A program made the position numbers and the translations under genes. From Escherichia phage vB_EcoM-P3322: a stretch of 64,000 bases of DNA. Under the pieces are notes generated by a model. It was not told the DNA's origin. It saw only the letters and a program-made list of their open reading frames with translations, and did no database searches. The stretch is taken from sequence record PV191315.1; one strand, written 5' to 3'. Shown here piece by piece: positions 990-36,964 of this stretch. Within the stretch, counting starts at the first letter, position 1; every line of letters begins with the position of its first letter.

Positions 990-1715
990 ATGATCGAGAA
1001 TTTTTTTAAAGATATTAAATTCGATACTGAATTTTTCAAAAATGCAGCAAAGCACGTGATTGATTGGAATGCCAAAGCACGCGGTGGTGAACAACCTGAA
1101 TTCACTCAAGAGCTATTTATGTCCCAAATCGGGTTCGTTCGTGAAGAGCTTAAAGAGTATGAAACAGCCGCGAAAGTAAACGATCATGTAGAACTCTTGG
1201 ATGCAGCAGCGGATATTTTTGTAGTATCCAGTTATCTGACTTACATGTTCTTTGGTGAAGAACATACGATGAATTTCTTGGACTATGCTGTAGGCGATGT
1301 TTTTACTCCAACTGTGTATACTGATTTTGATGCTTTGGAACAAACATTTACAGAGCCAGTTCAAATGGCACTAATGGCTGCTGGTATTATGCGTATGTCT
1401 CGTGACACTCTAATCCGTTCAAAATATCCAGAAAAGAAAGTTATTAAAGAGGTATTGAAAAGTAATGATTCCAAGTATCCAACTAAACAACAGTTGCTGA
1501 AAACTTGGAAAACTTCGGATATCGATTCAGCCATTGCACAAGAATGCGCTGCAATTGAAGAACGAAATGCCAATCGTCCAGAAGGGGCATACACTGGTGT
1601 TCATGCTGTTTATAATGAAAAACAGAAAGTGTATGTGTTCTTTGATGATAAAGGTAAGATCATGAAACCATCGACCTTTGTCAAACCTAATATTGCAGGT
1701 ATTATTAACAAGTAA
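990..1715 (+). CDS. putative MazG-like all-alpha NTP pyrophosphohydrolase
   Basis: RBS AAGGAG; acidic motif REELKEYE...ELLDAAADIFVV resembles MazG/dCTPase EExxE...D signature (recall only). Confidence 0.4.
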   Translation: MIENFFKDIKFDTEFFKNAAKHVIDWNAKARGGEQPEFTQELFMSQIGFVREELKEYETAAKVNDHVELLDAAADIFVVSSYLTYMFFGEEHTMNFLDYAVGDVFTPTVYTDFDALEQTFTEPVQMALMAAGIMRMSRDTLIRSKYPEKKVIKEVLKSNDSKYPTKQQLLKTWKTSDIDSAIAQECAAIEERNANRPEGAYTGVHAVYNEKQKVYVFFDDKGKIMKPSTFVKPNIAGIINK

Positions 1716-1722
1716 TGTTGTA

Positions 1723-1742
1723 AGCCGCCCTTTACGGGCGGT
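1723..1742 (+). terminator. GC stem-loop downstream of 990..1715 (weak T tract)
   Basis: gccgccc-ttta-cgggcgg inverted repeat right after stop. Confidence 0.3.
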
Positions 1743-1771
1743 AATGTGAGATGTATTAAATAGGAGGAAAC

Positions 1772-2650
1772 ATGTTTGTAAAATCTTTTAAATCCGCTCT
1801 GCCTATGGTTGTTGGTGACAATGCTTCTGTAGCATCCCTTAACAGCATTACAGATATTCCTCTGGAATTTGTAACAGCAGAAGGCTCCCAGTCACACACT
1901 ATTGGTCTTGTTCGTTTCGAAGATGACTCTAAATTTGTAAAAGAGTTCTCAGATCTTGAACTGCTTAATGTAGGTCAATCTGTGAAGAAGGTAGATAAAA
2001 AGAAAGTTAAACGTATTCTGAATGAACGTCTAGAAGAAATGCGTCAGGACATGGAGAGCGAAGGTAAAGAGTTTTATGTCGATAAAGAAGTAGTCAAAGC
2101 AATGAAGGAAGATATTGAATTTGCACTATTGCCTGAAACAGAACCTGAAGATTTCTTTAACTATGTTGTCTTGGATAAAACTACGAATCTTCTTTATGTT
2201 CTTAATGGAAGTAAAAAGGTCGCAGAAGAGATTACTTCTTTCCTCCGTTCAGTTCTGGGGACTTTCCCTTCGGTAGGTTTTAGTGTGCATGAAGAAGCTA
2301 TTGTAAAAGGTTTTGGTGAATTGCTGGAGAATCACGAAGCAGATCGTATTACTCTCGGAAATTATATCAAAATGGAGGATAGCGAGGGCGTTGTTGTTTG
2401 GAGTAAAGAATCCCTATACGAGTCTAAAGCTGTCGAACTAAAAGAAGATGGTAAAGATGTTGTTGCAATCGGTCTTGAATATGACGGTGTTGTAGATTTT
2501 GTAGTGGATAAAGAGTTTAAACTTTCTAAACTACGTTTTCCGAAATATTTTGCAGACGAAGAAGGTAGTATTGAAGCTTCAGTCCTTCTGTGCTTCAATG
2601 AGATTCGAGGTCTGATGGAAGATTTAACCAAAGCAACAATCCTTAAATAA
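1772..2650 (+). CDS. rdgC: RdgC-like recombination-associated protein
   Basis: Strong RBS AGGAGG; ~290 aa; several blocks align by eye with E. coli RdgC (LLPE..D.T..L..V, KLS.LRF). Confidence 0.5.
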   Translation: MFVKSFKSALPMVVGDNASVASLNSITDIPLEFVTAEGSQSHTIGLVRFEDDSKFVKEFSDLELLNVGQSVKKVDKKKVKRILNERLEEMRQDMESEGKEFYVDKEVVKAMKEDIEFALLPETEPEDFFNYVVLDKTTNLLYVLNGSKKVAEEITSFLRSVLGTFPSVGFSVHEEAIVKGFGELLENHEADRITLGNYIKMEDSEGVVVWSKESLYESKAVELKEDGKDVVAIGLEYDGVVDFVVDKEFKLSKLRFPKYFADEEGSIEASVLLCFNEIRGLMEDLTKATILK

Positions 2651-2654
2651 GTTC

Positions 2655-2683
2655 TTGACTTGCGGGATTAGTTATGATATCAT
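2655..2683 (+). promoter_or_regulatory. sigma70-like promoter
   Basis: TTGACT-17nt-TATCAT upstream of 2723 gene. Confidence 0.45.
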
Positions 2684-2712
2684 GCCTACCTACTTAATGA
2701 GGTAGGCTTTTT
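2684..2712 (+). terminator. leader hairpin with T-run (terminator for rdgC-like gene or leader structure)
   Basis: gcctacc-tacttaatga-ggtaggc followed by ttttt. Confidence 0.45.
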
Positions 2713-2722
2713 AGGAGGCGTT

Positions 2723-2932
2723 ATGAAAAAGATTCTGACAGTCGTTCTTTTAGCTTTTAGTTTCACAGTAGCAGCAGGTCAAATTACTTTAATCTTGTCT
2801 GATTCTGAAGTTAATGGCAACACAAAATATTGCTACTATTCTAACGCTAACCAAGATGAAGTTATAGCAATCCCGAAAAGTCGTCAATGTCCGTATACTA
2901 AAACATTCTCAACAGAGGATGACGATGAATAA
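2723..2932 (+). CDS. small secreted protein (signal peptide)
   Basis: RBS AGGAGG; N-terminus MKKILTVVLLAFSFTVAAG is signal-peptide-like. Confidence 0.6.
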   Translation: MKKILTVVLLAFSFTVAAGQITLILSDSEVNGNTKYCYYSNANQDEVIAIPKSRQCPYTKTFSTEDDDE

Positions 2933-3373
2933 TTAGGGGGAAATATTAGCGGTTATATTTTAATTAAACCTGAAGATCTTCATTTATATGTCAACGAAGA
3001 AACAATAGCTGCAATTGATTATGATCAGATCGCTTTCCAAGCAGCGTCTGCATTAGAGAAAAGAACAATCATTGCGAAGCACATACCTTCAGGTGCTCAA
3101 AAGGAATTCAAAAATAAGACAGAGTTTTGGGGTAAAAGCAAGACTAAAATTGGAGGTTGGCTAGGAGATACAAATGCAGAAAGAGCCTCCAAAAACAAAC
3201 GTCCCTTCACAAAGGAAGAGTTCGAAATCATTGATAAGCAATACCCGCCAGAAGATATCGGACACACCTTCCAAGCAGCTAAAACAAAAGTCTTAGGTAT
3301 TCTAAAACATCTACGTTTAGAAAAATATTGCGGAGTTATTGGCGTAGGAAAAACTTTCAGACACGCCTTCAAA

Positions 3374-4063
3374 ATGCCTGTAGAATATAAATCTGAACGA
3401 TTAGATATCAAACCACTTCAGCTTTCAGAAACCAAAGATTATCTTGTGGAGTTCCACAATGGTGATGTTGTTACTGTAATAGAGGCTGATGATGAGTTAG
3501 AGAAGTATGGTTTCCAAGGTTATAAAGATTATAAAAGGACGGGTAAATTTTCTTATATTGTAGTGTCTATAGATAAAGATAGTTTACATACTCCTAGTAT
3601 CCTTTTTAATTTCTACAAAGAGGATGGAGTATTTAAAAATCCAGATATAATTCTTATTGACGAGTCTATTGGCGACATATGGATCGTAGATAAAGGTAAA
3701 AAGAAAGAAGTTAAAGGTTGGGGAAGTTATTGGTTAGCCTATCAGATGCTAATGGGAGATAAAACAGATAGTATCCGACCTTATCAAGATTTTGATATTA
3801 AGTTTGGAGATATTACTTGTTTTAATCTTCTTTCAGCTTGTAAAACTCAAGCAGAGCTTTTCCAAACAGTTAAAGATACTTACTACTCGTGGTTCCCAGA
3901 TGGTGTTAATTTTACTTCTTGGGATGGAGAAGAAGTCCATATGACAACAGATGAATGGATAGAAACAATTTTCCAGTTGGTATACATGAAACGCTGGGAT
4001 AACGACGATACAACATTTGAGAGTATGCTTCAGTCATACATCTCACAACAGGAGGCAGAGTGA
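3374..4063 (+). CDS. hypothetical protein (possible nuclease); reading frame is open upstream to 2933 without ATG/GTG/TTG
   Basis: Track ORF from first ATG; same frame is stop-free for 147 codons upstream (see findings). Confidence 0.55.
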   Translation: MPVEYKSERLDIKPLQLSETKDYLVEFHNGDVVTVIEADDELEKYGFQGYKDYKRTGKFSYIVVSIDKDSLHTPSILFNFYKEDGVFKNPDIILIDESIGDIWIVDKGKKKEVKGWGSYWLAYQMLMGDKTDSIRPYQDFDIKFGDITCFNLLSACKTQAELFQTVKDTYYSWFPDGVNFTSWDGEEVHMTTDEWIETIFQLVYMKRWDNDDTTFESMLQSYISQQEAE

Positions 4064-5019
4064 GCAGATTAACAGAAGAGCAGAAAGCAGATATCCTTAG
4101 TATGAGTGCAGAGGGTATGTCTTCTCGCAATATTGCAGCAATTGTTTTAGGTAGTCCAACAAGAAAAAGCACAGTAAATGATTTCCTTGCACGTTTCGGT
4201 GCAAGTAAACAAGAGCCAGTTAAAAAGAAACAACCAGTTATTAAAATTATTGATGTTGAAACTGCACCAGAGATTGCATATACTTTCCGTCGATTCAAAG
4301 CCTTCATTTCTCCAGACCAGGTAATTCGTAGGGGTTATTTGTTATCTTACTCTTCTGCTGATTTGTATACAGGTGAAGTGGAAGGTAAGAACTTGTCTTC
4401 TTATCCTCTTTTTGATATTGATCATACAGATGATTGGGAGCTTTGCCAAGATCTTTGGAACCTTCTGAACGAGGCAGATGTAGTTGTGGCACACAACGGG
4501 TATAAGTTTGACCGTGCATACATTAACCAACGATTTGCATATCACGATATGGCTCCTCCTTCTAATTATGTAGTTGTTGATACATTGAAGGCAGCTAAGA
4601 AACAATTTGCACTTCCTTCCAACTCCCTTAAAGAAATGGGAGCATATTTCGAAACAGAAAGTGAAAAACTGGATAACGAGGGGTTCCCTTTATGGAAAGC
4701 ATGTTGTGAAGGTGATCGTGATGCTTTTGAACGTATGCAGATTTACAATGATGGTGATGTTGTTTCACTCCGTGATTTGTATATGAAAATCCTTCCGTGG
4801 ATTCCGCAGCATCCTAACTTATCCGCTTATTACCCAGATGAGAAGGTCCGTTGTTCTCGTTGTGGAAGTGATCATGTTCACGTTGTTACTGGTAAGCAAT
4901 ACCACACTGCGGTAAGTTCTTTCGATATCATTCGTTGTGAATCTTGTGGAGGTTTGTCACGTAGTAGAGCAAACACCAGATCCAAGGATAAACGAGCAGC
5001 AACTATCATTGGAATCTAA
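4060..5019 (+). CDS. DEDD-type 3'-5' exonuclease with N-terminal HTH-like region and C-terminal Zn-ribbon
   Basis: GTG start overlapping upstream stop; motifs IDVET, HNGYKFD, YNDGD; CSRCGS...CESCGG. Confidence 0.6.
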   Translation: MSRLTEEQKADILSMSAEGMSSRNIAAIVLGSPTRKSTVNDFLARFGASKQEPVKKKQPVIKIIDVETAPEIAYTFRRFKAFISPDQVIRRGYLLSYSSADLYTGEVEGKNLSSYPLFDIDHTDDWELCQDLWNLLNEADVVVAHNGYKFDRAYINQRFAYHDMAPPSNYVVVDTLKAAKKQFALPSNSLKEMGAYFETESEKLDNEGFPLWKACCEGDRDAFERMQIYNDGDVVSLRDLYMKILPWIPQHPNLSAYYPDEKVRCSRCGSDHVHVVTGKQYHTAVSSFDIIRCESCGGLSRSRANTRSKDKRAATIIGI

Positions 5020-5025
5020 TAATCA

Positions 5026-5049
5026 GGGAGCTTATTGCTCCCTTTTTTA
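5026..5049 (+). terminator. rho-independent terminator
   Basis: gggagc-ttatt-gctccc then TTTTTT. Confidence 0.7.
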
Positions 5050-5078
5050 TTGACAAAAATTTTATATTAGTGTATACT
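5050..5078 (+). promoter_or_regulatory. strong sigma70-like promoter
   Basis: TTGACA-17nt-TATACT. Confidence 0.7.
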
Positions 5079-5105
5079 CTGCTAACCACAATAAAAGGAG
5101 GAAAT

Positions 5106-5333
5106 ATGAGCATTACATTAACAGGTAACGAAATTTTCGAACTGTTTGAAATGTTAGGTTTGAACTATACCATCGAGAAAGACCCAGATTTACTTGATGT
5201 TGAAATAACAATTCAAGAAGATACAGCAATCTACAATGATGATGGTGATGTTATCTATCAAGGTAGGGTAGCTTATTATACAGACTACCCAGAAGAAGGC
5301 GCAGTAGGAATTCAGGAGGAAAATTATGTCTAA
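5106..5333 (+). CDS. hypothetical protein
   Basis: RBS AAGGAGG 6 nt before ATG 5106; acidic 75 aa. Confidence 0.6.
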   Translation: MSITLTGNEIFELFEMLGLNYTIEKDPDLLDVEITIQEDTAIYNDDGDVIYQGRVAYYTDYPEEGAVGIQEENYV

Positions 5334-5721
5334 TGCTTTTGATAATCAGGTTGACGGTGATCACTACACAAAAATGGCAATGCAACCTATTGAACTAGCT
5401 TATTTGGTTGGTGGCACACCTTGTTTTTGCAAATTGGCAAAATACGCAACACGTATTAAAGGTGAACGTCAGATTAACCTAGATAAAGCTATTCATTGTA
5501 TTGAACTAGAAAGAACCCTTATGCAAAATAACACGTATATGGTTCGTGAAAATTATCCATCTATGACAAATGCAGCTAAACATGATCAAACTATGCTTCT
5601 GATTGATTTCTTCACAAAAGATCCTTTAGTACGAGTAGCACTGAAACATATGTATAACTCTTCTTATGTAGATGCAATCGAAGCTATTAAACAACTTAAG
5701 GAACGTATTAGTGGCGAGTAA
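5326..5721 (+). CDS. hypothetical protein
   Basis: RBS AGGAGG; start overlaps upstream stop. Confidence 0.6.
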   Translation: MSNAFDNQVDGDHYTKMAMQPIELAYLVGGTPCFCKLAKYATRIKGERQINLDKAIHCIELERTLMQNNTYMVRENYPSMTNAAKHDQTMLLIDFFTKDPLVRVALKHMYNSSYVDAIEAIKQLKERISGE

Positions 5722-5817
5722 TACTAAACAATATGGAGCAGGAGAAGTTTATAAAATATTCAACCGAAAAGGTGATAAACTTTTACTAACTTTGACTATT
5801 CCAGAAACAATGTGCAA

Positions 5818-5846
5818 GGCGGGGTTAGACCGCCTTTTGTTTTTTA
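5818..5846 (+). terminator. rho-independent terminator
   Basis: ggcgg-ggttaga-ccgcc followed by ttttgtttttt. Confidence 0.65.
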
Positions 5847-5915
5847 AACACAATATCCCACCAGGGGAATATACAGCTAAAAAGGTGAGCAATATTGGCA
5901 GGTGAACCAAAAATA

Positions 5916-6470
5916 ATGTGGGGTGAAGGAACACCCTGGAAAACACAAGCTGAATTTTATACTTATCTTAGGGGATGTTTTAGAAAAGCATGGATGAGAC
6001 ACCCTAATAAAATTAAGGTTATCAATGCAAGGCGTTTTAAAGTTGATCGTGTAGATAAAGACGGCAATGTAATGATAGACAAGAAAACTGGAAAACCAAA
6101 ACAAGTTTGGAATTGTGAGTGCGAAATATGTGGACACAGAGGAGGAATGAAAGACTTCCAAGTGGATCATATTCACGCAGCAAAACAACTTCAATGTTTT
6201 GAGGATATTCCCCTTTTTGTTTTCCGTTTGATCTATGTGAAAGAAGAAGATTTGCGAATGGTTTGTAAATTGTGCAACTCTATTCTTGCTTATGCAGACA
6301 AGCAAGGCATATCTTTTGAAGAAGCAAAAGCTGAAAAAGAAGCGATAGCTTTGTGTAGAGCTAAGAAAGATAAAGCGTGGCTGAAGAAGCGTAAAATAGA
6401 ACCTGAAAGCACAGTAGCAAAACGCCGTAAACAAATAGTCAAAATCCTATTGCAGGAAATTGAAAGTTAG
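5916..6470 (+). CDS. HNH-family endonuclease
   Basis: C-x2-C...DHIH...C-x2-CN zinc/HNH pattern; ATG 5916 after AGGTGA (TTG 5895 alternative). Confidence 0.55.
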   Translation: MWGEGTPWKTQAEFYTYLRGCFRKAWMRHPNKIKVINARRFKVDRVDKDGNVMIDKKTGKPKQVWNCECEICGHRGGMKDFQVDHIHAAKQLQCFEDIPLFVFRLIYVKEEDLRMVCKLCNSILAYADKQGISFEEAKAEKEAIALCRAKKDKAWLKKRKIEPESTVAKRRKQIVKILLQEIES

Positions 6471-6506
6471 TATAAGATAACTATACTAAAAGAGAGAGGA
6501 GGTTTT

Positions 6507-7115
6507 ATGCAGATAGTATGTGATTGGGATTTAGTTGTGGCTCCATTAGATGTTGCTTGGTTAGAATGGTTGAATAAGATTAGTGGACTTGGTGTTAAGA
6601 TAGACACATTCACAAAAAATGCAGACTATGATCTTACCAACTACTTTCCTGGTTTCAGGGAGGAGTTCAATATAGATCCTTACGGATTTCTGGATAATCC
6701 TCATCTCTATGATACAATGGGTTTTGTTCCAGGTATGCCAGATTTCTTAAAGTATGTTTCAAGGAAAGGTAGCAATCTTTTGATCGCAAGTGTGACAAAA
6801 GGTGGTCACTTAAGTTCTAAACATAAACATGTTTTAAGAACGTTAGATACGATTGATTTTAGCAAAGGATCTGGTAACGGCTTTTTTGCTACGAAAGAAA
6901 AATACTTATTGCCTTGTGACATAGCAATAGATGACAGGGCTGATAACCTACTATATTTTCCAGATGAAGTGGTTAAAATATATTTTAATACGCCTTATAA
7001 AGATAACCATCTAGAAGAACTAAAGAAAAAACCAAATGTTGTGATCACAGGTTTAGAAGATCAGTGGCTAACATGTTTGGATGTTTTTAACACTTTGAAC
7101 AATTTTAAAAACTAA
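6507..7115 (+). CDS. putative HAD-type 5'(3')-deoxyribonucleotidase
   Basis: RBS GAGGAGG; N-terminal DWD and later IDDRADN motifs resemble NT5C/HAD (recall only). Confidence 0.4.
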   Translation: MQIVCDWDLVVAPLDVAWLEWLNKISGLGVKIDTFTKNADYDLTNYFPGFREEFNIDPYGFLDNPHLYDTMGFVPGMPDFLKYVSRKGSNLLIASVTKGGHLSSKHKHVLRTLDTIDFSKGSGNGFFATKEKYLLPCDIAIDDRADNLLYFPDEVVKIYFNTPYKDNHLEELKKKPNVVITGLEDQWLTCLDVFNTLNNFKN

Positions 7116-7124
7116 GGAGAAAAA

Positions 7125-8123
7125 ATGACAAAACAGATTTCGGCTAGTATTATTGCGCATTCCATCACTGAAGACGGAAAAGAGATTGTAACTTTTGAAC
7201 TAGAATATCCACGTATTATTCATTCAGAATTGATGACTCACCGCCTGTTCAGTCGTAATGCTGCTTCTAGCCGTGCTATACCTGTTAAAACACTGATTGA
7301 AATGGTGCGAAATCAACCTGCTCGTCCTTATCGTTTTGGGGCTAACCAACCTGGTATGCAGGATAAAGGTGTTGATCATGACGCTCTTATTGATGCAGGT
7401 TATACTGCTCAAGAGTGGTGGAATCTTGCCGCGCTTAGTGCAGCACGTTTTGCAGAAGAATTCTCTTTGGCAGGGTACCACAAACAAGTTGCAAACCGTC
7501 TTCTGGAACCTTTCCAACGAATTAAAACAGTTCTGACAGCAACAGAATATGAAAATTTCTGGTGGCTACGTGATGACAAAGAAGCCGATCCTACTATCGA
7601 AGCTTTGGCTAAAGAGATGCACAAAGAGTATGAAGAATCTACACCAGAAGTGCTGAAACCAGGGCAATGGCACACACCTTATGTAGACCATTTCTATGAT
7701 ACTATTGGCACAGAAGGTGACGATCATTTTGTTTTTGGTGGATACTACGTTCAAGATGAATCTGGAGAAGTCGTTGTGCTTACTTTGGAAGAAGCCAAAG
7801 CTATTTCAGCTTCGTGTTGTGCACAGGTTAGCTATCGTCGTTTAAATGCAACTAAAGATAAAGCTTTAGATATCTATGGTCGCTTGCTGACTGGGCGCAA
7901 GGTTCATGCTTCTCCGTTTGAACATCAAGCCACTCCAATGCAAGAAACATACGAACAATATGGAGAGAACTGTTTTGAAGATTTGTTTATCAATGCTCCT
8001 TGGGATTTTAACTCTTGGGAACCAGGTATTACCCATGTAGATCGTAATGGTAAGTTTTGGTCTGGCAATTTCAAAGGCTGGATTCAACATCGTCAACTTT
8101 TAACAAATCATACTAAATGGTGA
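7125..8123 (+). CDS. thyX: ThyX-like flavin-dependent thymidylate synthase (unusually long, 332 aa)
   Basis: RBS AAGGAG; HRLFSRNAASSR resembles ThyX RHR-x7-S motif. Confidence 0.55.
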   Translation: MTKQISASIIAHSITEDGKEIVTFELEYPRIIHSELMTHRLFSRNAASSRAIPVKTLIEMVRNQPARPYRFGANQPGMQDKGVDHDALIDAGYTAQEWWNLAALSAARFAEEFSLAGYHKQVANRLLEPFQRIKTVLTATEYENFWWLRDDKEADPTIEALAKEMHKEYEESTPEVLKPGQWHTPYVDHFYDTIGTEGDDHFVFGGYYVQDESGEVVVLTLEEAKAISASCCAQVSYRRLNATKDKALDIYGRLLTGRKVHASPFEHQATPMQETYEQYGENCFEDLFINAPWDFNSWEPGITHVDRNGKFWSGNFKGWIQHRQLLTNHTKW

Positions 8124-8139
8124 TCTGTTTAAATAGTTA

Positions 8140-8167
8140 TTGACTTTAGTATTAGTTTTAGTATAAT
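8140..8167 (+). promoter_or_regulatory. sigma70-like promoter
   Basis: TTGACT-16nt-TATAAT; leader hairpin gggagga/cctccc follows. Confidence 0.55.
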
Positions 8168-8221
8168 ATAGCACAATACTGGGAGGAGGTGAGTCCTCCC
8201 ATTCAAAATGAAGGAGAAAAT

Positions 8222-8632
8222 ATGTCATTAGTAAATACTACAACTTGGGCTACCGTAAGCATGTCTACTGTAATGTCTACCCCTATCTGGAAACTAGAAT
8301 CAAATAAACACAATGGCAATATCCCACACGAGAAACAAAATGCTGTTATTAGAGCGTCGCTTGTAATGCTGGGTATGGCTGAAGATTCACACTATTCTGT
8401 TGAGCGTAATGTGAATATCCGAAGCAATAACGATAAGCGAGTAGTGTTTGCAAATACAACGCTTTTCACTTTCCCTGTTTCACCTAATTGTGGTTTTAAA
8501 CGAATCTATCAAGAAAATGATATTTTTCATTTTGGTGATGAAGAATTTACAGGTTGGGGTGCGTCACATATTAAGATGGATGATTTCGGTAACTCTTATG
8601 ATCCTGCGAAAGCAGATGATACTAATCAATGA
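8222..8632 (+). CDS. hypothetical protein
   Basis: ATG 8222 after AAGGAG; track start 8189 lies inside the leader hairpin. Confidence 0.6.
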   Translation: MSLVNTTTWATVSMSTVMSTPIWKLESNKHNGNIPHEKQNAVIRASLVMLGMAEDSHYSVERNVNIRSNNDKRVVFANTTLFTFPVSPNCGFKRIYQENDIFHFGDEEFTGWGASHIKMDDFGNSYDPAKADDTNQ

Positions 8633-8640
8633 GAGGGACA

Positions 8641-8883
8641 ATGACTGATAATAAATATGAAGGCTGTGAAATCGAAGTCTATTTTGATGAAACTGTTGGT
8701 TGTAATGTAACTGTAATTCTAGACACTTCAAAACGTTTATCTCCTAAAAGACAAGAAGCAGACCGTCGAGCAAAAGCAAAAGGGTTTGATGACATAACTC
8801 ATTTTGAAGGTTTTCTATATGCTAATGGACTTTTTAATGAAATGAAGTTCGGTTATGATGTAGATGTTTTGAATATGCATTAA
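8641..8883 (+). CDS. hypothetical protein
   Basis: ATG 8641 after GAGAGGGA; 80 aa. Confidence 0.5.
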   Translation: MTDNKYEGCEIEVYFDETVGCNVTVILDTSKRLSPKRQEADRRAKAKGFDDITHFEGFLYANGLFNEMKFGYDVDVLNMH

Positions 8884-8899
8884 TAATAGGGAGGAGAAG

Positions 8900-11140
8900 T
8901 TGATTCGTTTTGTAACTAAATCTAACGGTAAGACAGAGGAGTTTAATCCAGAAAAACTTCGCAAGTGGTCTGAATTTGCAGCAGGTAAACTAAACTGGTC
9001 TGAAATTGAATTAGAAGCTGTGAAGCGGTGTTATGACGGTGTGTCTACACGTGATCTGCATAAAGCAATGATTGCAGCGTGTATTGACAAGAAAACACAA
9101 GCTTACAGTGATATGGCAGGAAGACTTCTTCTTGGTATGATTTACAAACAGGCTCATGGGGGATACCACAGTATCCCTTCACTGAATACCTTTTATCATG
9201 ATATGGTAGAACGTGGACATTGGGCTAAAATGGATTATACTGATGAAGAGATCAAAGAAATCGGTAAGATTGTAAAGCATAATAAAAATCTAACTTATGG
9301 TTATTCTGTTTTACGTCAGATGGTAGATAAATATCTTATTCGAGATGCAGTAAACGATGTGGTGCATGAGTCTCCACAGTTTCTTTTCATTGGTATCGCA
9401 ATGAAGGTTATGGAGATCCAACCAAAAGAACGCCGTATAGAAGATATTAAAAAACTTTATACTTATGTTAGCGATCTTAAGATTAATCTGCCATCGCCGT
9501 ATCTGACAACTCTACGAACTCCAATCAAAGGAAGTGCGTCTTGTTGTTTATTCCGTGCAGACGATACAGCAGAGTCTTTAGCCATTGCTAATTACTTAGC
9601 TCATGAGTATACGTTGAATAACGCAGGTATTGGTGTTAATCTTCAAACTCGTGCCACAGGTCAAGGTGTTAAGAATAATCGTATTATTCATGGTGGTCTT
9701 CTTCCGTATCTGAAATGGATGGAAGATAGTGTTGGAGCTTCGAAGCAAGCAAGCCGTGGAGGTAGTGCTACAGTTACCTTTACCATACTTGAACCAGATT
9801 TCGACGATCTGATTCGACTGAAGAATCCAACAACACCTATAGATAAACGAGTAGACAAACTGGATTATTCTATTGTTGTTAACCGTTCGTTCTTGCGTCG
9901 AGCAGCAAAAAACGAAGATTGGATGTTAGTTAGTTGTGACGATGCTCCTGAACTTTATGAAGCTTTGTATAAAAGTGAAGAAGAGTTTGATGCAGTTTAT
10001 GACAAAGTAAGCCGTCGTCGCATTAAGAAAAAATTTGTTAAGGCTCGTGATCTTCTGACAGAGATTATTGTTCAACGTGCAGAAACAGGACGTATTTACA
10101 TGTTCTTTGCTGACAACGTTAACAACCATACACCTTTCCTGGATACGGTGTATCAATCAAACCTGTGTCAAGAAATCTTCTTACCAACTAAAGCTTTCCA
10201 TAGTATGCCGGATCTCTTTACTGGTGAGAATACAGAAGATCAAGAATTGGCTTTATGCTTCTTATCTTCTATTGTTGCTGGTCGTGTATTACCTGAAGAA
10301 TATGAAGATGTTGCATACTACACTGTATTGACAATTGACAACGTTATTGAAACAATGGATTATCCATTTAAACATAACGAAATAACTGCTAAAGCACGTA
10401 GATCTATTGGTGTAGGTATTACAAACTTAGCGCATTATTTGGCAAGTAATTTTGTAAATTATTCAGATGCTTATGCTAAAAAATTAATGCATGAACTTGC
10501 AGAACGTCATTACTTTTGGTTGGCAAAAGCCTCTCTGCGTCTGGCTAAGGAAAAAGGTAATGCAGAATGGATCGATAAGACCAAATGGCCTCAAGGTTGG
10601 CTACCAATTGACACTTATGCTAAAACAGTAGATAGTATCGGTAATTTTGATCTTAAAATGGACTGGGAAGGCTTACGTGCTGAAATCATTGAACAAGGTG
10701 GTATCCGTAACAGTGTCTTGGCTGCTATTGCACCTAATGAGTCCAGCAGTTTGGTAAGTAATACGACTAACTCTCTGTACCCTGTTCGTGATACTATTAT
10801 GTATAAACAAAGTCAGAAAGGTAGCGTATTATTTATTGTTCCAGATTACGAAAAACTGAAAATGTTCTACCAATCCGCCTGGGATACTCCGGCTAAAGAC
10901 CTTGCAGAAATGTATGGTATCTTTACCAAGTTTACGGACCAAGGAATTTCTTGTGATTCTTGGTTAGATTATTCTAAATTGGTAGGGGGACGTTTATCAG
11001 TTAAAGAAGAGATGAAATTTATTTTGAACTTTGCTAGACTGGGTGGTAAGTCATTGTATTACCTTAATAGTAGAACAAAATCAGCAGATTCTTTAGCACA
11101 AGAAGATTCTGATGGTGGTTGTGAAGCTTGTAAGATGTGA
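8900..11140 (+). CDS. nrdA: ribonucleotide reductase class Ia large subunit
   Basis: 746 aa colinear with E. coli NrdA incl. C-terminal redox cysteines (CEACKM); TTG start after GGAGGAG. Confidence 0.95.
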   Translation: MIRFVTKSNGKTEEFNPEKLRKWSEFAAGKLNWSEIELEAVKRCYDGVSTRDLHKAMIAACIDKKTQAYSDMAGRLLLGMIYKQAHGGYHSIPSLNTFYHDMVERGHWAKMDYTDEEIKEIGKIVKHNKNLTYGYSVLRQMVDKYLIRDAVNDVVHESPQFLFIGIAMKVMEIQPKERRIEDIKKLYTYVSDLKINLPSPYLTTLRTPIKGSASCCLFRADDTAESLAIANYLAHEYTLNNAGIGVNLQTRATGQGVKNNRIIHGGLLPYLKWMEDSVGASKQASRGGSATVTFTILEPDFDDLIRLKNPTTPIDKRVDKLDYSIVVNRSFLRRAAKNEDWMLVSCDDAPELYEALYKSEEEFDAVYDKVSRRRIKKKFVKARDLLTEIIVQRAETGRIYMFFADNVNNHTPFLDTVYQSNLCQEIFLPTKAFHSMPDLFTGENTEDQELALCFLSSIVAGRVLPEEYEDVAYYTVLTIDNVIETMDYPFKHNEITAKARRSIGVGITNLAHYLASNFVNYSDAYAKKLMHELAERHYFWLAKASLRLAKEKGNAEWIDKTKWPQGWLPIDTYAKTVDSIGNFDLKMDWEGLRAEIIEQGGIRNSVLAAIAPNESSSLVSNTTNSLYPVRDTIMYKQSQKGSVLFIVPDYEKLKMFYQSAWDTPAKDLAEMYGIFTKFTDQGISCDSWLDYSKLVGGRLSVKEEMKFILNFARLGGKSLYYLNSRTKSADSLAQEDSDGGCEACKM

Positions 11141-11147
11141 TGAAACT

Positions 11148-11168
11148 AGGGGCTTCGGCCCCTTTTTA
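11148..11168 (+). terminator. rho-independent terminator
   Basis: aggggc-ttcg-gcccct then ttttt. Confidence 0.7.
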
Positions 11169-11184
11169 TTGAGGAGAATTTTAA

Positions 11185-12270
11185 ATGGCAGCAATTAATT
11201 TACACAATGAAGTTTACAAAACAGGAAAATATCCAGTATTTTTAGGGGAACAATTAGGGATTTTTGATTCTGTTAACGTAACTTATCCAGAGATGCACAA
11301 ACTCTACAAACTTCAAAAAGCACAAGATTGGGATGAGAATGAAGTCAATCTGGATCAGACACGTAAAGATTTCGTAGCTTGTTCTAAAAACAACTATGAT
11401 GTTATGATTAAAAACTTATCGTTCCAATGGGAAAATGATTCTCTTGCAAAATCAATCATCACTTTGTTCTCTCCATTCTTGAGTAACAATGAAGCCTGTG
11501 CTATGATGATGAAGCAGAGTGAAATGGAAGTTCTCCATGCGTTAACGTATTCTGAAATAATCCGTCAATGTACTCCAGATCCAATTGAAGTCATCAATCA
11601 GATTATGATTAATGATAAAATTTTCAATCGTATGGGTATCATTGCTGATATCATGGGTCAGTTGGAAGAAGCTGGTCATAAGTATGCTCTAGGATTGATT
11701 GAAGCTAACGATGAACTTCGATTGCTGATTCTTAAAGGGATGGTAGCCCTGATTGGATTAGAAGGTATTCAGTTTATATCTTCCTTCTCTGCTACTTTTG
11801 CTATGGCAGAACAACAACTGTTTGTTGGGGCTTGTAAACTGATCCAGAAAATTATGCTAGATGAAATCTTGCATGTTAAGATGGATTATGCTGTAATTGA
11901 TGCATTGATGCATGACCCAATTTGGCGTAAAATTTACGAAGACAATATTGAAGAGTTGACTTTGATCCTCGACACTGTTGTTGAACAAGAGGAACAGTGG
12001 TGTGACTACCTGTTTAGTGAAGGTCGTTTTATTGTAGGTCTTAACGCCGAATTGTCTAAACAGTGGGTTTATTTCAATGCTGCGCCTATTTATCGTCGAT
12101 TGAAAATGAAAGCCAAGTTTAAAGCACCTAAACATAGTCCTTTAGCTTGGATGGAAAAATGGTTGAATCCTGATTTGATTCAGTCAGCAGCCCAAGAGAT
12201 TCAGTTAACTAATTACAAATTGAATTCAGCTAACAAAGATCTCTCTGATGATGAGGAGCTTGACTTCTAA
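11185..12270 (+). CDS. nrdB: ribonucleotide reductase class Ia small subunit
   Basis: 361 aa; NrdB-like N-terminus (PVFLGEQ) and iron-ligand regions; RBS GAGGAG. Confidence 0.9.
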   Translation: MAAINLHNEVYKTGKYPVFLGEQLGIFDSVNVTYPEMHKLYKLQKAQDWDENEVNLDQTRKDFVACSKNNYDVMIKNLSFQWENDSLAKSIITLFSPFLSNNEACAMMMKQSEMEVLHALTYSEIIRQCTPDPIEVINQIMINDKIFNRMGIIADIMGQLEEAGHKYALGLIEANDELRLLILKGMVALIGLEGIQFISSFSATFAMAEQQLFVGACKLIQKIMLDEILHVKMDYAVIDALMHDPIWRKIYEDNIEELTLILDTVVEQEEQWCDYLFSEGRFIVGLNAELSKQWVYFNAAPIYRRLKMKAKFKAPKHSPLAWMEKWLNPDLIQSAAQEIQLTNYKLNSANKDLSDDEELDF

Positions 12271-12479
12271 TGATTTTGAGATGTGTTGGTATAATCGACA
12301 CATTCAAAGACGTTTTTGATAAAGGGGCTTCTTATGAAGCCTCCGAAATGAAGAATGGTTTTTGTGATGTATTCGGTAAACGCCTGAAGAAAAACGGCGA
12401 TCCTTGGCTAGGAGTTATGTCTTGTGGTCATATTATTGTAAATGGTGTTGCCAAGTTTGAAATAATTAAGGAGGAATAA
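12270..12479 (+). CDS. hypothetical protein
   Basis: ATG overlaps nrdB stop (TAATG). Confidence 0.5.
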   Translation: MILRCVGIIDTFKDVFDKGASYEASEMKNGFCDVFGKRLKKNGDPWLGVMSCGHIIVNGVAKFEIIKEE

Positions 12480-12625
12480 TGGCTGAAAAACTTATTTTTT
12501 GTCCTGTGTGCGGTGGGACTGGACAGATGGAAGTGGAAATTATGGTAACATTTCCTTGCCTGAATTGTCATGGTGAGGGACGAGTAGTAGTCTTTGAAAA
12601 AGAAGAGGTGGAAGATGGAGAATGA
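12479..12625 (+). CDS. small zinc-ribbon protein (DnaJ-type CxxCxGxG)
   Basis: 48-aa ORF below track threshold; RBS AAGGAGG; CPVCGGTG...CLNCHGEG. Confidence 0.45.
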   Translation: MAEKLIFCPVCGGTGQMEVEIMVTFPCLNCHGEGRVVVFEKEEVEDGE

Positions 12626-12779
12626 AAAAGAGTATGTCCGTATTCCACGAGAATTAACAGATCACATTGCAGAAGCAATAGCTTTCGAAGCTAGATGTTG
12701 TGGAGGCATTGCTTACGATATTTATGAAGCAATTATTAAAGCTGCTCAAGAAGAGGAGGAGATGAAAAATGGGTATTGA
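12615..12779 (+). CDS. hypothetical acidic protein
   Basis: ATG 12615 overlaps previous stop; start uncertain (track 12594). Confidence 0.4.
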   Translation: MENEKEYVRIPRELTDHIAEAIAFEARCCGGIAYDIYEAIIKAAQEEEEMKNGY

Positions 12780-13095
12780 TATCGAATGGCGTATGTTACA
12801 GGGTGCACCTTTTAATAAGTGGGAAGAGGCTGTAGGAGAAGATCCTAGAATTGAAGAAGAATTTGATGGAGATTTTAACTGGTTCTTACAAGAAGGTCTG
12901 GACTTAAGCCGCATCTCTCCTTTCTACGATGCGGATGAGTCTTATTGCATATATGGCCTTGATTTAGAAGGCGGAGAGGGAAGCATAGCTGTAGATCTTG
13001 AGCAATTGAATGAGAATGCAAAAGAAGCCTATGCAAAGCTACTTGAAAAATATAACATTAAAACGGAAACTATTATTTCTCAACATGTCTGGTAA
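12769..13095 (+). CDS. hypothetical protein
   Basis: RBS GAGGAG before ATG. Confidence 0.55.
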   Translation: MGIDIEWRMLQGAPFNKWEEAVGEDPRIEEEFDGDFNWFLQEGLDLSRISPFYDADESYCIYGLDLEGGEGSIAVDLEQLNENAKEAYAKLLEKYNIKTETIISQHVW

Positions 13096-13104
13096 GGAGA
13101 ACTG

Positions 13105-14097
13105 ATGCGCTATCTGGTAACAGGTGGTCTTGGTTTTATTGGGAGTGCCGTGGTGCGCTCTCTTTGTCAAGATCCTAATAACGAAGTTTTTGTCGTTGAT
13201 AAGATGGGCTATGCAGCAGATATTGAGAATGTAGGCGATATCACTCACGTTAAACTAAGCATGACAGATTTGGCAAACGAAACCCAGGTCAAAAGTTTAG
13301 TAGTAGAGTGCAATCCTGACTTCATCATTCACTTAGCGGCAGAAAGTCATGTGGATAATTCTATCAAGAATCCACGAGTTTTCATCGACTCCAATATTAT
13401 CGGTACATACAATTTATTGGAAGCTGCAAGGCTCCTCCCAAAAAATAAACTGAAGATGTTCGTACACGTCTCCACAGACGAAGTGTACGGCGATATGGCA
13501 GACTCTGGCGTTCCCTTTACCGAAGAGACAGCTTATGCCCCTTCAAGCCCGTACAGTGCGTCTAAAGCAGCATCTGACCATCTTGTGAAAGCTTGGCACC
13601 GCACCTACGATTTGCCTGTTGTGATAACCAACTGCTCCAATAACTTTGGGCCTTATCAACATCCAGAAAAGCTGATCCCAAAAATCATCACAAGTATCTT
13701 GACGAATAAAGAGATTCCGGTGTATGGTAAAGGCGACCAGGTGCGAGACTGGCTTTTTGTTGAGGATCATGCGCGAGCTATTCTTCAAGTGGCAACAGGT
13801 GGAGAACCAGGTCAAACGTATAATGTTGGAACACGTAATCCCAAAACCAATATGGAGATCATCTATATGGTTTGTGACTATATGGATACTGTACATCCAG
13901 AAGCAGTAACCTACCCTTCTTCCAACTTGATAACTTTTGTTGAAGATCGTAAAGGACATGACTTGCGTTATGAAATCAATCCTTCTAAGATAGAGTCTGA
14001 ACTGGGCTGGAGTGCAAACTCTACATTTGAACAAGATCTCTACTCAACGATTGAATGGTACTTAAACAACCCTCAATGGTGGAGTGAGAAAATTTAA
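13105..14097 (+). CDS. rfbB: dTDP-glucose 4,6-dehydratase
   Basis: [10 protein letters not shown] Rossmann motif, YSASK catalytic motif, RmlB-like length. Confidence 0.9.
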
Positions 14098-14105
14098 GGA
14101 GGGTT

Positions 14106-14984
14106 ATGAAAGGTATTATTTTGGCGGGAGGAAGTGGAACCCGCCTTCATCCGGTAACACGCAGTGTGAGCAAGCAATTGCTCCCTGTGTATGACAAACC
14201 CATGATCTACTACCCTTTATCGGTATTGATGTTGGCTGACATTAAGGATATTTTAATCATCACCACACCAGGTGATCAGGAAGACTTTCAGTATCTTCTC
14301 GGAGATGGGTCTATGTTTGGAATAAAACTCACTTACGCAATCCAATCCGAGCCACGAGGTCTTGCGGAAGCTTTCATCATAGGTAAAGATTTTATCGGAG
14401 AAGACTCTGTTGCTCTTATTTTAGGTGACAACCTATTCTTCGGACAAAGCTTTGGTAAACTACTGATTAACGCCAGTGAGATGGTAGATGTTTGGGGAGG
14501 AGCTTGTATTTTCGGGTATTTGGTGAAAGATCCTGAACGATTCGGTGTGGTTGAATTTGGGAGTAATCGTCAAGCTATTTCTATTGAAGAGAAACCTGAA
14601 AATCCTAAATCAGATTATGCTGTCACAGGTTTGTATTTCTATGATAACTCTGTTATTCAACGTGCATTAGAAGTAACCCCTTCCGCGCGTGGAGAACTGG
14701 AGATCACTGATATCAATCGCAGCTACCTAGAAGACAGGAAGTTACAAGTGGAAGTTCTCGGACGAGGATTTACTTGGCTTGACACAGGAACACACGCCAG
14801 TCTGATGGAAGCTGGTCAATTCGTGCAGACTATTGAGAACTGTCAAGGATTGAAGATTGCGTGCCTGGAAGAAATTGCTTTCAAAAAAGGGTGGATTTCT
14901 TTAGAGACTTTGGTGTATCATGGAAACTCACTGAAGAAAACAGAGTACGGGCAATACCTACTCAAATTAGCGGAGAGAAAATGA
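14106..14984 (+). CDS. rfbA: glucose-1-phosphate thymidylyltransferase
   Basis: [16 protein letters not shown]...[17 protein letters not shown] signature. Confidence 0.92.
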
Positions 14985-15547
14985 AAGTAGAAAAAACAAA
15001 AATTGAAGGTGCGGTAATTATCAAACCAGACGTTTATAAAGATGATCGTGGTTTCTTTCTAGAAACATATAATGAACAAAAATACGAAGATATTATTGGT
15101 AGACAAACTTTCGTTCAAGATAACATGTCTAAATCAAACTTCGGTGTTTTGCGAGGAATGCACTTTCAAACAAATAACCCGCAAGGTAAGCTAGTTCGTT
15201 GTGTAAGTGGGGAAGTATTGGATTTCGCTGTAGATTTACGTAAAGATAGTCCAACTTACGGTGCTTGGGACGGTGTTGTTCTTCGTGCACGACACCATAC
15301 GCAGTTTTGGCTTCCGCCTGGTTTGGCTCATGGTTTTATAGTTTTGAGTATGGATGCTATCTTTGAATACAAATGCACAACTCCATACGACCCTTCTAGT
15401 GAACAAAGTTTACGTTGGGATGATCCTGATATAGGGATCGATTGGGGCTTCGATATGATTTTTGACGAAGGTTTTAAACCTATTCTATCAACAAAAGATG
15501 CAATGGCTAAATCTTTTCAACAGTTACGTAGCGAGGGTGTATGCTAA
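14981..15547 (+). CDS. rfbC: dTDP-4-dehydrorhamnose 3,5-epimerase
   Basis: ATG overlaps rfbA stop (ATGA); RmlC-like DDRGFF and cupin motifs; track start 14861 is an upstream GTG. Confidence 0.88.
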
Positions 15548-16382
15548 CATATCTGGTATTGGGCGGTAATGGACAACTGGGACAAGCTTTACGTAAAGTG
15601 GCTCCTTCAAATGTATCTTTAATTTATCCTAAAGAACGTGTAGATATTACAAATTTTGAAGCTGTGCGAAACGCTATTATTGAAGATTATGTAGATGGTG
15701 TTATTAATTGCGCCGCTTATACGGCTGTAGATAAAGCAGAACATGATTTTGCTACTGCTTTGGCTGTTAATGCGTATGGACCTGCAAATATTGCGGCAGT
15801 GTGCAGCAAACTTAAAATTGATTTTGTGCATATTTCTACAGACTATATTTTTAATTATTCTCATCCTATTTTTGAAGATACTACACCTAACCCAATAAAC
15901 AATTATGGGTATACGAAAGAACTTGGTGAAAAATGGTGCGAGGAGTTAACCCAAATGCATATATTATTCGAACAGCCTCGGTATATAGCGAATTTGGAAA
16001 TAACTTTCTAAAAACCATGTTGTCTCGCTATAATGATGGACAACGTGATTTTATTATTGTTGCTGATCAGTTCTCTTGTCCAACATATGCTCCAGATTTA
16101 GCAGAAGCTATTTTTGAAGTATTAAAAACAGGTTGGTCAAGGTCTATTAAGACTTACCATTTTGCAGGAAGCCATCTTATTTCTTGGGCGGAGTTTGCGG
16201 AAAAGATCTTGACACAGATGCCAGAACCTGTTAAGATATCGGCGGTATCAGCTTCAACCTACAATGCTCCAGCAGCACGTCCGGTGAAGTCACAACTAGT
16301 AACCAGTCACTATCTTACAAAATCAGATTTAAATAAAGGTATTGAACAGTCTTTAGCAGTATTACTTAATAAGGAGAGGTAA
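15541..16382 (+). pseudogene. rfbD: dTDP-4-dehydrorhamnose reductase, interrupted by 1-nt frameshift in A5 run near 15928-15933
   Basis: N-terminal half (15541..16011) and C-terminal half (15933..16382) in different frames; together colinear with RmlD. Confidence 0.75.
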
Positions 16383-16642
16383 TGGAATTTGTAATTTTTG
16401 GTAAACCTAACTGTCAATTTTGTGAAATGTCAAAACAACTATTAACTATGCGCAATAAACAGTTTGAATATTTAAGTCTTGATCAAGACTATGATTTAGA
16501 ATCAATGACTAAAACAGTTGTTGATCTTACCGGAGTTCCTCCACGCACATTTCCACAAATTCTGTCCGAAGTGAACGGGGAGGTAACATACGTAGGCGGT
16601 TTTACCGAACTGCGTGATCTCATGGCTCAAATTGCGGAGTAA
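16382..16642 (+). CDS. nrdC: glutaredoxin (T4 NrdC-like)
   Basis: CQFC active site; C-terminal PQI...GGF..LR resembles T4 NrdC. Confidence 0.75.
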   Translation: MEFVIFGKPNCQFCEMSKQLLTMRNKQFEYLSLDQDYDLESMTKTVVDLTGVPPRTFPQILSEVNGEVTYVGGFTELRDLMAQIAE

Positions 16643-19374: not shown

Positions 19375-19809
19375 ATGTTACAAGTTCCTGCTAAGTTTGT
19401 TGAAGGCGCTATCCACTCTTACCGTCAAACATGTAAGAGGGCAAGAAACTGTTTAGATGGTCTGGTGGCAAAAACCTATACTGTTGAAAAGAAGAAACGT
19501 TGGTTTGGCAAAGATGTTTACGAAGTTAATATTTTTGGTGAACATAAACTAAACCACGATACTCCTGAAAACATGTTAGAAATATTTCTAAGAGATGACA
19601 AAATATCTCCTATGGATTACCAACTTTTAAAATTTTATGATTCTTCTTTGGCTATTGATAAGTTTGTTGAAGATATTCTATCTAGAAAAACAGATAAAAA
19701 CACTTATCCTCTAGAAGCTGATCAAATAGGATTATTAAACGAGATTTCATCCTTTAAAGAGTTGGATAATATTACAAAAGAGGAGATTTTAGATGGCATT
19801 AGATTATGA
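19375..19809 (+). CDS. hypothetical protein
   Basis: RBS AGGAG. Confidence 0.6.
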   Translation: MLQVPAKFVEGAIHSYRQTCKRARNCLDGLVAKTYTVEKKKRWFGKDVYEVNIFGEHKLNHDTPENMLEIFLRDDKISPMDYQLLKFYDSSLAIDKFVEDILSRKTDKNTYPLEADQIGLLNEISSFKELDNITKEEILDGIRL

Positions 19810-36894: not shown

Positions 36895-36914
36895 AACCAC
36901 TCCTAAACTATTGC

Positions 36915-36945
36915 TGTATTCTCACTTTACAAAACGAATAAACAC
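36915..36945 (-). promoter_or_regulatory. sigma70-like promoter for recombinase
   Basis: rc: TTGACA-17nt-TAAAGT. Confidence 0.45.
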
Positions 36946-36964
36946 TTGTCAAGGTATTTATTAT

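Follow-up and report, generated by a model that had tools for sequence, protein, structure and literature searches.

The closest described counterpart of the phage genes considered here is the RmlABCD pathway of bacteria (the rfb genes of E. coli and Salmonella, the rml genes of Pseudomonas), and the same four enzymes are encoded by certain virulent Escherichia phages. Olsen et al. (2020), who isolated Escherichia phage tuntematon, described its rml pathway and suggested, on the model of T4, that hydroxymethylated nucleotides become rhamnosylated (PMC7552041). Maffei et al. (2021) reported the sister genus, the phi92-like phages, to be highly restriction-sensitive despite a "putative dTDP glycosylation machinery" (PMC8594841), Vitt et al. 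(2024) repeated both the rhamnosylation idea and the restriction sensitivity (PMC10844046), and a 2023 study recorded a Phapecoctavirus, ESCO37, without rmlA and rmlB (PMC10269720). The rml gene set and the idea of DNA rhamnosylation are thus already known, having been published in 2020, and our literature search found no experimental resolution of rml function. Here we analyse the rmlBACD genes and their surroundings in a stretch of 64,000 nucleotides, hereafter the window, from Escherichia phage vB_EcoM-P3322 (PV191315.1); the phages of the 2020 and 2021 studies have a gene set identical to that of this lineage and have attracted the same hypothesis of a rhamnosylated hydroxymethyl nucleotide. 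What is added is the insertion point of rml relative to Vequintavirus, a co-occurring glycosyltransferase (GT) cassette with prophage versions that include an RmlB-like dehydratase, the logic of the ESCO37 deletion, a private frameshift in rmlD and an apparently permuted topology of the phage ThyX. The best explanation as a whole, which in our judgement stands evenly balanced between right and wrong, is that an acquired rml operon was inserted into a nucleotide-metabolism block and feeds the phage's own GT cassette.

Over positions 990–16382 the window is 99.1% identical to tuntematon, along the full length of the region, and 99.0% identical to phAPEC8, with 66 records covering at least 80% of the query. 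Because of this near-identity the window is, on the evidence of sequence, phAPEC8-like and a member of Phapecoctavirus (Stephanstirmvirinae), and its source is a virulent myovirus of ~150 kb. Gene calls were checked by Pfam, PHROG and NCBIfam scans of the open reading frames (ORFs) of the window. Three rml products, all encoded on the plus strand, exceed the NCBIfam/TIGRFAM equivalog cut-offs, namely RmlB, dTDP-glucose 4,6-dehydratase (13105–14097; TIGR01181, 431.2 bits, cut-off 365.1), RmlA, glucose-1-phosphate thymidylyltransferase (14106–14984; TIGR01207, 465.5 bits, cut-off 360.65), and RmlC, dTDP-4-dehydrorhamnose 3,5-epimerase (14981–15547; TIGR01221, 225 bits, cut-off 155.75). For rmlC the start is the ATG at 14981, which is also the annotated start in tuntematon, the mechanically called ORF from the GTG at 14861 being an upstream extension. 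The fourth product, RmlD, exceeds its cut-off in an intact relative, to which the likeness with the bacterial enzyme therefore refers. Unlike the bacterial loci, the phage version is found in a virulent myovirus, has the gene order B-A-C-D and lies inside a nucleotide-reductase transcription unit, and unlike bacterial polysaccharide loci it has no adjacent glycosyltransferase, flippase or polymerase.

The rml genes are flanked by nrdB and the glutaredoxin gene (grx), and the same neighbourhood is found without them. In JeffSchatz, a Vequintavirus that has no rml, the gene order is exonucleases, NT5C-like, ThyX-like, two small ORFs, NrdA, NrdB and glutaredoxin, with PhoH further downstream, and the MazG/NT5C/ThyX/NrdAB/glutaredoxin block is collinear between the two phages. 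By this comparison of gene order, rmlBACD together with four small ORFs constitute an insertion between nrdB and grx relative to Vequintavirus. The four small ORFs (12270–13095, plus strand), which lie between nrdB and rmlB, are annotated in tuntematon and ESCO37, have no assigned function and have no counterpart in JeffSchatz; one of them (12769–13095) matches PHROG 15453. The GC content of rmlB is 0.427, and that of rmlB and rmlA is ~0.43 against ~0.37 for the flanking genes. Because the collinear block exists without rml in JeffSchatz, rml is to be regarded as an insertion and not as part of a joint pathway with ThyX, and its juxtaposition with nucleotide genes, being the outcome of an insertion event, is no evidence for a shared pathway. 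Since the genes from nrdB to grx overlap or sit ≤10 nt apart, and a scan for promoters and terminators revealed no convincing promoter or terminator of rml's own and no clear independent rml transcription unit, rml is probably co-transcribed with nrdB and grx. The picture that we propose is of a bacterial-type dTDP-L-rhamnose pathway, horizontally acquired in the Stephanstirmvirinae lineage, which would have entered an ordinary nucleotide-metabolism block inherited from the common ancestor with Vequintavirus, and which would be transcribed with this block while functionally standing outside it.

The earlier note on this DNA had read a complete rfbB-rfbA-rfbC-rfbD set from the window. This is borne out for the first three genes, whereas rmlD (dTDP-4-dehydrorhamnose reductase, 15541–16382, plus strand) is interrupted and falls into two ORFs (15541–16011 and 15933–16382), both of which match PF04321 (profile positions 4–145 and 136–266, respectively). 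Alignment traces the split to a deletion of 1 nt, a run of five A residues at 15929–15933 standing against six in tuntematon, whose intact 280-aa RmlD scores 237.4 bits with TIGR01214 (cut-off 224.05). An 81-nt query across the deletion had an identical match in none of 64 Phapecoctavirus records and, among the matches listed (30 records), each differs from the window's 81 nt solely by the one-base gap. Since no related genome shares the deletion, the interruption is, as far as these records go, private to the window sequence, either a sequencing error in a homopolymer or a recent private mutation; a programmed frameshift was considered and rejected, the A5 run being private to this sequence. 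The complete rml pathway is therefore a property of the lineage and not of the window as sequenced.

A search for glycosyltransferases, which the earlier note had proposed, gave none within the 64-kb window and four genes in close relatives. In tuntematon four consecutive annotated glycosyltransferase genes, gp113–gp116 (48463–51607), lie directly upstream of the primase/helicase, a Dam-like methylase and DNA polymerase, and this set of four recurs at the corresponding position in PaulScherrer (Justusliebigvirus). The product of gp113 (187 aa) is assigned only from PHROG and the record annotation, together with a DTD that can be read as a possible DxD motif; gp114 is a GT-A protein with an invariant FDDD motif; and gp115 and gp116, paralogs of each other, are GT-B proteins that match Glyco_trans_1 weakly. 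None of the four has a match in NCBIfam, and neither the GT-A nor the GT-B profile gave a meaningful match in sequence searches of PDB. No transmembrane-like segment was found in gp113–gp117, the maximal Kyte-Doolittle hydropathy over 19 residues being ≤1.65. The GT-B structure model (pLDDT 94.8) has a GT4-like fold of the retaining type, and the solved structures closest to it are sucrose-phosphate synthase, GlgM, BshA, MshA, PglA, PimB' and TarM; further neighbours are SdgB, Gtf3 and GtfC, which are protein Ser-O-glycosyltransferases, and RfaG-like viral proteins, and GTs acting on small molecules and lipid-linked ones are represented too. T4 AGT and BGT are not among the top 50 structural neighbours in either PDB or BFVD, and the modelled structure would not by itself decide the acceptor. 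A few kb upstream of the GT cluster of tuntematon, on the same strand, is a Ter-type cluster (36459–46027) comprising TerC, a vWA-TerF-like protein, a ComF-like phosphoribosyltransferase, HAD hydrolases and phosphatases; clusters of this type have been predicted to produce a metabolite resembling a nucleoside.

The cassette also occurs in unrelated phages and in prophages. A phage contig of 135 kb carries, in succession, a gp113-like protein, an RmlB-like NDP-hexose 4,6-dehydratase, GT-A, GT-B, primase/helicase and PolA, and its dehydratase is matched best by the dTDP-glucose dehydratase model (E 3e-50), though short of the equivalog cut-off. The same four-gene cassette, again with an RmlB-like dehydratase, lies between the endolysin and HNH/terminase genes of an Enterobacter huaxiensis prophage. 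The GT-A/GT-B pair of Pseudomonas silvicola, and likewise that of prophage-like metagenomic contigs sharing its set of virion genes, directly precedes the genes for terminase, portal and capsid; in the contigs it comes after the holin. The cassettes in these other phages and prophages are at 2103–5319 (L007), 7797–10921 (L009), 9357–10960 (L008) and 714–2317 (L010), and in two of these cases the GT-A and GT-B genes are preceded by those for the gp113-like protein and the RmlB-like dehydratase. Distant tblastn matches of GT-B include glycosyltransferases of Streptomyces and Arthrobacter phages. In a Burkholderia dolosa contig (L012, 3025–8440) a 411-aa GT-B homolog is encoded just downstream of genes for an intimin/invasin-like adhesin of the outer membrane and a 571-aa protein of no known kind, a vicinity that suggests that some members of the GT-B family may glycosylate proteins.

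The repeated presence of an enzyme of 6-deoxyhexose synthesis within the GT cassette is the strongest argument that rml feeds these transferases. Co-occurrence points in the same direction. The GT-B family is found in 145 phage records and RmlC in 168, each of them being represented in ~64 Phapecoctavirus and ~66 Justusliebigvirus (phi92-like) records and also in relatives infecting Klebsiella, Citrobacter, Serratia and Pseudomonas, with no Vequintavirus among the matches listed for either search. On these grounds rml is probably the donor arm of a phage glycosylation system. It would supply an activated 6-deoxy sugar to the soluble cassette of gp113–gp116 homologs, consisting of a small GT-A-like protein, a DxD GT-A and two GT4-like GT-B paralogs and expected ~60 kb away, outside the window, and possession of the phage's own pathway would render glycosylation independent of the host rmlC and rmlD.

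In this context the natural deletion in ESCO37 is instructive. This Phapecoctavirus has undergone a clean and precise loss of rmlB and rmlA (ESCO37 4991–5001 corresponding to window 13095–14984) while rmlC, rmlD and the GT-B pair gp115/gp116 are retained at 99% identity. For the synthesis of enterobacterial common antigen every E. coli produces dTDP-4-keto-6-deoxyglucose by means of RffH and RffG, while strains whose O-antigens contain rhamnose are the only ones to have RmlC and RmlD. Supply of this intermediate by the host RffH and RffG would explain why ESCO37 tolerates the loss of rmlB and rmlA, and such complementation by the host, which we infer, would make the last two steps, RmlC and RmlD, the phage-specific contribution and the first two a booster.

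Several considerations weigh against the proposal that rml feeds the cassette. The co-occurrence of the GT and rml genes is largely a single phylogenetic event in one subfamily and is statistically weak because it reflects largely a single shared ancestry, and in the Phapecoctavirus lineage the two clusters are ~60 kb apart. GT4 enzymes mostly use UDP or GDP sugars, and the use of dTDP-rhamnose by these transferases, coupling donor to acceptor, is one that we infer. Moreover, the myovirus cassette is situated among replication genes and not structural genes, which fits a DNA target equally well; the literature search, whose coverage did not extend to the phi92 and phAPEC8 genome papers, found no report of glycosylated virions of these phages; and, should the rmlD frameshift be real, the present isolate could not finish the pathway without a host RmlD.

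As to the acceptor, all the options are held with low confidence. By our reckoning a phage or virion protein is the foremost single candidate, though well short of probable, followed by acceptors of some other kind, and then by host envelope glycolipid and DNA, which are equally doubtful; protein thus ranks above both DNA and host glycan. In favour of a virion protein are the position of the prophage cassette at the head of the late/structural region and the distant matches to GTs of actinobacteriophages. Glycosylation of virions by phage GTs is established in mycobacteriophages (Che8, Corndog, Myrna). The actinobacteriophage systems and the present one both rely on phage-encoded soluble GTs, and the prophage cassettes described here adjoin terminase, portal and capsid genes, but the hosts here are Gram-negative, the GTs of this myovirus lineage lie in the replication region, and the donor pathway is encoded by the phage. 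Tentatively, and with rather more doubt than belief, we suggest that rml and the gp113–gp116-type cassette together make up a mobile 6-deoxyhexose glycosylation system, sufficient in itself, that is found among Gram-negative phages in lytic myoviruses as well as in temperate prophages, and that would decorate virion proteins or glycosylate DNA without a hydroxymethylase. If true, decoration of virion proteins would be the first case outside the actinobacteriophages.

An unlikely alternative is hypermodification of DNA, whereby the phage GTs would move dTDP-rhamnose onto a hydroxymethylated or otherwise functionalised base as a protection against nucleases or other defences, as proposed in PMC7552041, repeated in PMC10844046 and, in the form of glycosyl hypermodification, entertained in the earlier note. 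The location of rml inside a nucleotide-metabolism transcription unit and the presence of MazG-like, NT5C-like and C5-methyltransferase-like proteins would suit this explanation, but MazG, NT5C and ThyX are common to the rml-less Vequintavirus. Likewise, in three myovirus lineages the GT cassette immediately precedes primase/helicase and DNA polymerase, a Dam methylase intervening in tuntematon, yet the same GT pair is found in temperate prophages that have no base-modifying genes nearby. The GT-A family shows weak matches to the TET-associated glycosyltransferase (TAGT) in 15 of 16 members (best E 1.1e-4), and a match to the PHROG of the T-even beta-glucosyl-HMC alpha-glucosyltransferase (E 7.6e-6) confined to residues 32–70. 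At 19.5 bits against a cut-off of 27.5, however, the TAGT match is below the Pfam threshold and comparable to the generic GT2 match, and having much the strength of the GT2 and GT7C matches it was judged non-specific and of little weight as a sign of a DNA glycosyltransferase. The T-even system (gp42 with alpha- and beta-glucosyltransferases) and the TAGT systems similarly place a capacity for sugar transfer alongside phage genes of DNA metabolism, but here the donor would be a phage-made dTDP-6-deoxyhexose and not host UDP-glucose, the GT-B proteins are GT4-like and do not have T4 AGT or BGT among their closest structural neighbours, and no enzyme to prepare the base is apparent: the complete tuntematon genome has no annotated ThyA-family hydroxymethylase, TET/JBP dioxygenase or dNMP kinase, and tblastn with E. 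coli ThyA gave a best E of 0.5, in what was a weak test. The only thymidylate-synthase-like gene encodes the ThyX-like protein common to rml-less phages. Finally, the phi92-like phages, which possess this machinery too, have been described as "exceptionally susceptible" to restriction–modification systems (PMC8594841; echoed in PMC10844046). Taken together, these observations do not support DNA as the acceptor, and on balance a virion protein is slightly preferred.

Remodelling of the host envelope, which the earlier note offered as modification of host surface polysaccharide, is judged no more probable. Here the GTs would rhamnosylate a cytoplasmic-face intermediate of the lipopolysaccharide (LPS) core, enterobacterial common antigen, O-antigen or capsule, and the masking of receptors would result in superinfection exclusion or prevent the trapping of progeny on cell debris. 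As a matter of general knowledge dTDP-L-rhamnose serves in bacteria mainly for surface polysaccharides, and GT2- and GT4-like enzymes are typical of polysaccharide assembly, the GT-B neighbours including PglA, PimB', TarM and RfaG-like viral proteins; but gp113–gp117 include no membrane-spanning segment, flippase or Gtr-like component, and no part of the Gtr seroconversion module (the GtrA flippase, the bactoprenol glucosyltransferase GtrB and the membrane protein GtrC) is annotated in the window or in tuntematon. Enterobacterial common antigen and the LPS core are reported receptors of these phages (PMC8594841), yet the acceptor structures differ among the E. coli, Klebsiella, Pseudomonas and Enterobacter hosts of the same cassette. 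Occurrence in temperate prophages would fit lysogenic conversion, but the prophage cassette lies in the late region, between lysis/holin genes and terminase, and not beside the integrase, while a strictly lytic cycle would presumably leave little time for the replacement of outer-membrane LPS. We find no positive evidence for this form of modification.

That rml is a dispensable and partly decaying metabolic passenger, for example topping up or diverting the host pools of dTDP-sugar and dTTP, its link with the GTs being a coincidence of shared ancestry, would agree with the viability of ESCO37 without rmlB and rmlA, the frameshifted rmlD of the window, the distance between the rml and GT genes and the essential restriction of their co-occurrence to one subfamily, but is very improbable, since all four rml genes are intact in the lineage, RmlC is 98.9–100% identical among the Phapecoctavirus matches listed and the pathway is kept at ~62% protein identity in the sister genus, a retention and conservation that imply purifying selection, and since an RmlB-like dehydratase is embedded in the GT cassette of unrelated phages and the frameshift, being private and in a homopolymer, may be a sequencing error.

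The ThyX-like protein (332 aa; 7125–8123, plus strand; Pfam Thy1 34.9 bits; PHROG 85, E 1.5e-108) can be separated from the question of rml. It had been called unusually long and made the candidate source of a modified pyrimidine. Its length is normal for its family, in which at least 6893 homologs of 290–350 aa, in 90% clusters, align end to end; at 50% identity there are 5425 representatives, and some proteins of ~630 aa match the profile in two stretches. By tblastn the protein is found in 1034 phage records, 992 of which cover at least 80% of it, and its carriers include Vequintavirus, Vibrio phage ICP1, PAK_P-like Pseudomonas phages, N4-like phages and phiCbK-like phages. With 1034 records against 168 for RmlC the family is therefore unlinked to rml, and since the block is also collinear in the rml-less JeffSchatz, a base-modifying enzyme tied to rml was rejected. 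Thus, of the overall interpretation put forward in the earlier note, the general idea of a phage glycosylation pathway finds support in the GT cassette outside the window, and that of a ThyX-derived modified pyrimidine, subsequently glycosylated, goes unsupported.

What the protein is in its own right is indicated by profile and structure comparisons. The Pfam ThyX match (PF02511, 34.9 bits, cut-off 24.8) covers only profile positions 59–191, the score with the equivalog TIGR02170 is 31.8 bits (cut-off 87.9), and neither the single sequence nor a narrow profile retrieved a ThyX from PDB. A more diverse profile matched ThyX entries only (E 1.3e-5), in three pieces of permuted order: profile positions 210–255 (ISASCCAQVSYR...HASPFEH) align to residues 32–75 of T. 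maritima ThyX, positions 21–50 (THR...SSR) to residues 73–102 and positions 125–173 (LR..DAQPE) to residues 165–213. In the phage protein the segment matching T. maritima 32–75 hence comes after the RHR and R174 segments. With an AlphaFold (AF2) model (pLDDT 92.1) as query, the 50 Foldseek matches listed, of 142 in PDB at E ≤ 0.001, are all ThyX (probability 1.0; best E 4e-6); they cover only ~155 columns, as is expected if the order of segments differs. Compared with canonical ThyX (T. maritima TM0449, M. tuberculosis, PBCV-1), the phage protein has the fold, the HxxPFEH region, the xHRx7SxR motif and the LR...AQxE region in common, but it is ~100 residues longer, its canonical N-terminal segment has moved to the C-terminal half, Ala replaces Tyr after the SxR motif, and neither the RHRx7S signature nor the segment order is kept, the signature T38-H39-R40...S48-S49-R50 having THR in place of RHR. 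The protein thus appears, from the model and the alignments, to be a phage-specific long ThyX with the ThyX fold and a circularly permuted sequence; our literature search on permuted ThyX found nothing relevant. An ordinary ThyX with an unrelated C-terminal extension, the outcome that the earlier note had set against its own idea in proposing a profile alignment, was not what this alignment returned, and was rejected, the C-terminal half containing the relocated N-terminal segment of canonical ThyX and being conserved throughout the family.

The remaining genes of the block include those that the earlier note had named. They begin with a MazG/PRA-PH-like nucleotide pyrophosphohydrolase (990–1715, plus strand; Pfam PF01503, E 2.7e-6; PHROG 671), which has a partial homolog at the edge of the locus in JeffSchatz, and continue with RdgC (1772–2650) and two exonucleases (3374–5019), both assigned from the Pfam, PHROG and NCBIfam scans. 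The NT5C-like 5'-deoxynucleotidase (6507–7115, plus strand; PF06941, 26.1 bits, cut-off 24.8) has a homolog of 37% identity directly upstream of ThyX in JeffSchatz; neither this ORF nor the MazG-like one has a match in NCBIfam. Between the exonuclease genes and NT5C is an ORF (5895–6470) annotated in tuntematon as an HNH endonuclease, and as it has no counterpart at that position in JeffSchatz it may represent the insertion of a homing endonuclease. NrdA, the alpha subunit of a class Ia ribonucleotide reductase (8900–11140, plus strand; Pfam; TIGR02506, 467.7 bits, above cut-off), and the beta subunit NrdB (11185–12270, plus strand; PF00268, E 6e-33) are accompanied, beyond rml, by glutaredoxin (16382–16642, plus strand; PF00462, E 1.8e-9), whose ORF begins at the last base of the range 990–16382 treated in the earlier note. 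Glutaredoxin is presumed to be the reductant for NrdAB and is an ancestral neighbour of nrdB, which it directly follows in JeffSchatz.

Further downstream the short C5-cytosine-methyltransferase-like protein that had also been pointed out is present (26671–27396, plus strand), recognisable from the motifs FDGSG, GFPPC and IENP and from PHROG 757, 'DNA methyltransferase' (E 6.7e-85); it is Dcm-like by its annotation in tuntematon, is matched by nothing in Pfam or NCBIfam and has no demonstrated link to rml. A small methyltransferase-like ORF at 19793–20302 belongs to a PHROG DNA-methyltransferase family, again with no Pfam or NCBIfam match, and has an NPPF motif, characteristic of methyltransferases of the N6-adenine or N4-cytosine type. 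The product of 25382–26323 is a DUF7277/DUF7275 protein (E 1e-75), and 28578–29393 codes for a member of the Sir2 family. Near 30 kb both the coding strand and the GC skew change sign, and the remainder of the window (30000–64000) is dense with small minus-strand ORFs. Scans of the 64-kb window for tRNAs and Rfam families found nothing; the tRNA cluster of relatives is elsewhere in the genome. Among the database records, MG065650, MG065656, MG065689, MG065644 and MG065684 are labelled 'Campylobacter phage', but are either ~98% identical to E. coli Phapecoctavirus or encode proteins that match those of the window at the level of identity of phi92-like phages or Vequintavirus; the host labels are probably wrong or the preparations contaminated.

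The function of rml is thus an experimentally tractable question, to which the window itself adds little, and for which the GT cassette, the natural rmlBA deletion of ESCO37 and the separation of ThyX from the issue provide sharper experimental targets. Phapecoctaviruses and phi92-like phages have a broad host range and are used in cocktails for therapy and biocontrol. If their virions, their DNA or the envelopes of their hosts are rhamnosylated, immune recognition, stability, evasion of defences and host range would all be affected.

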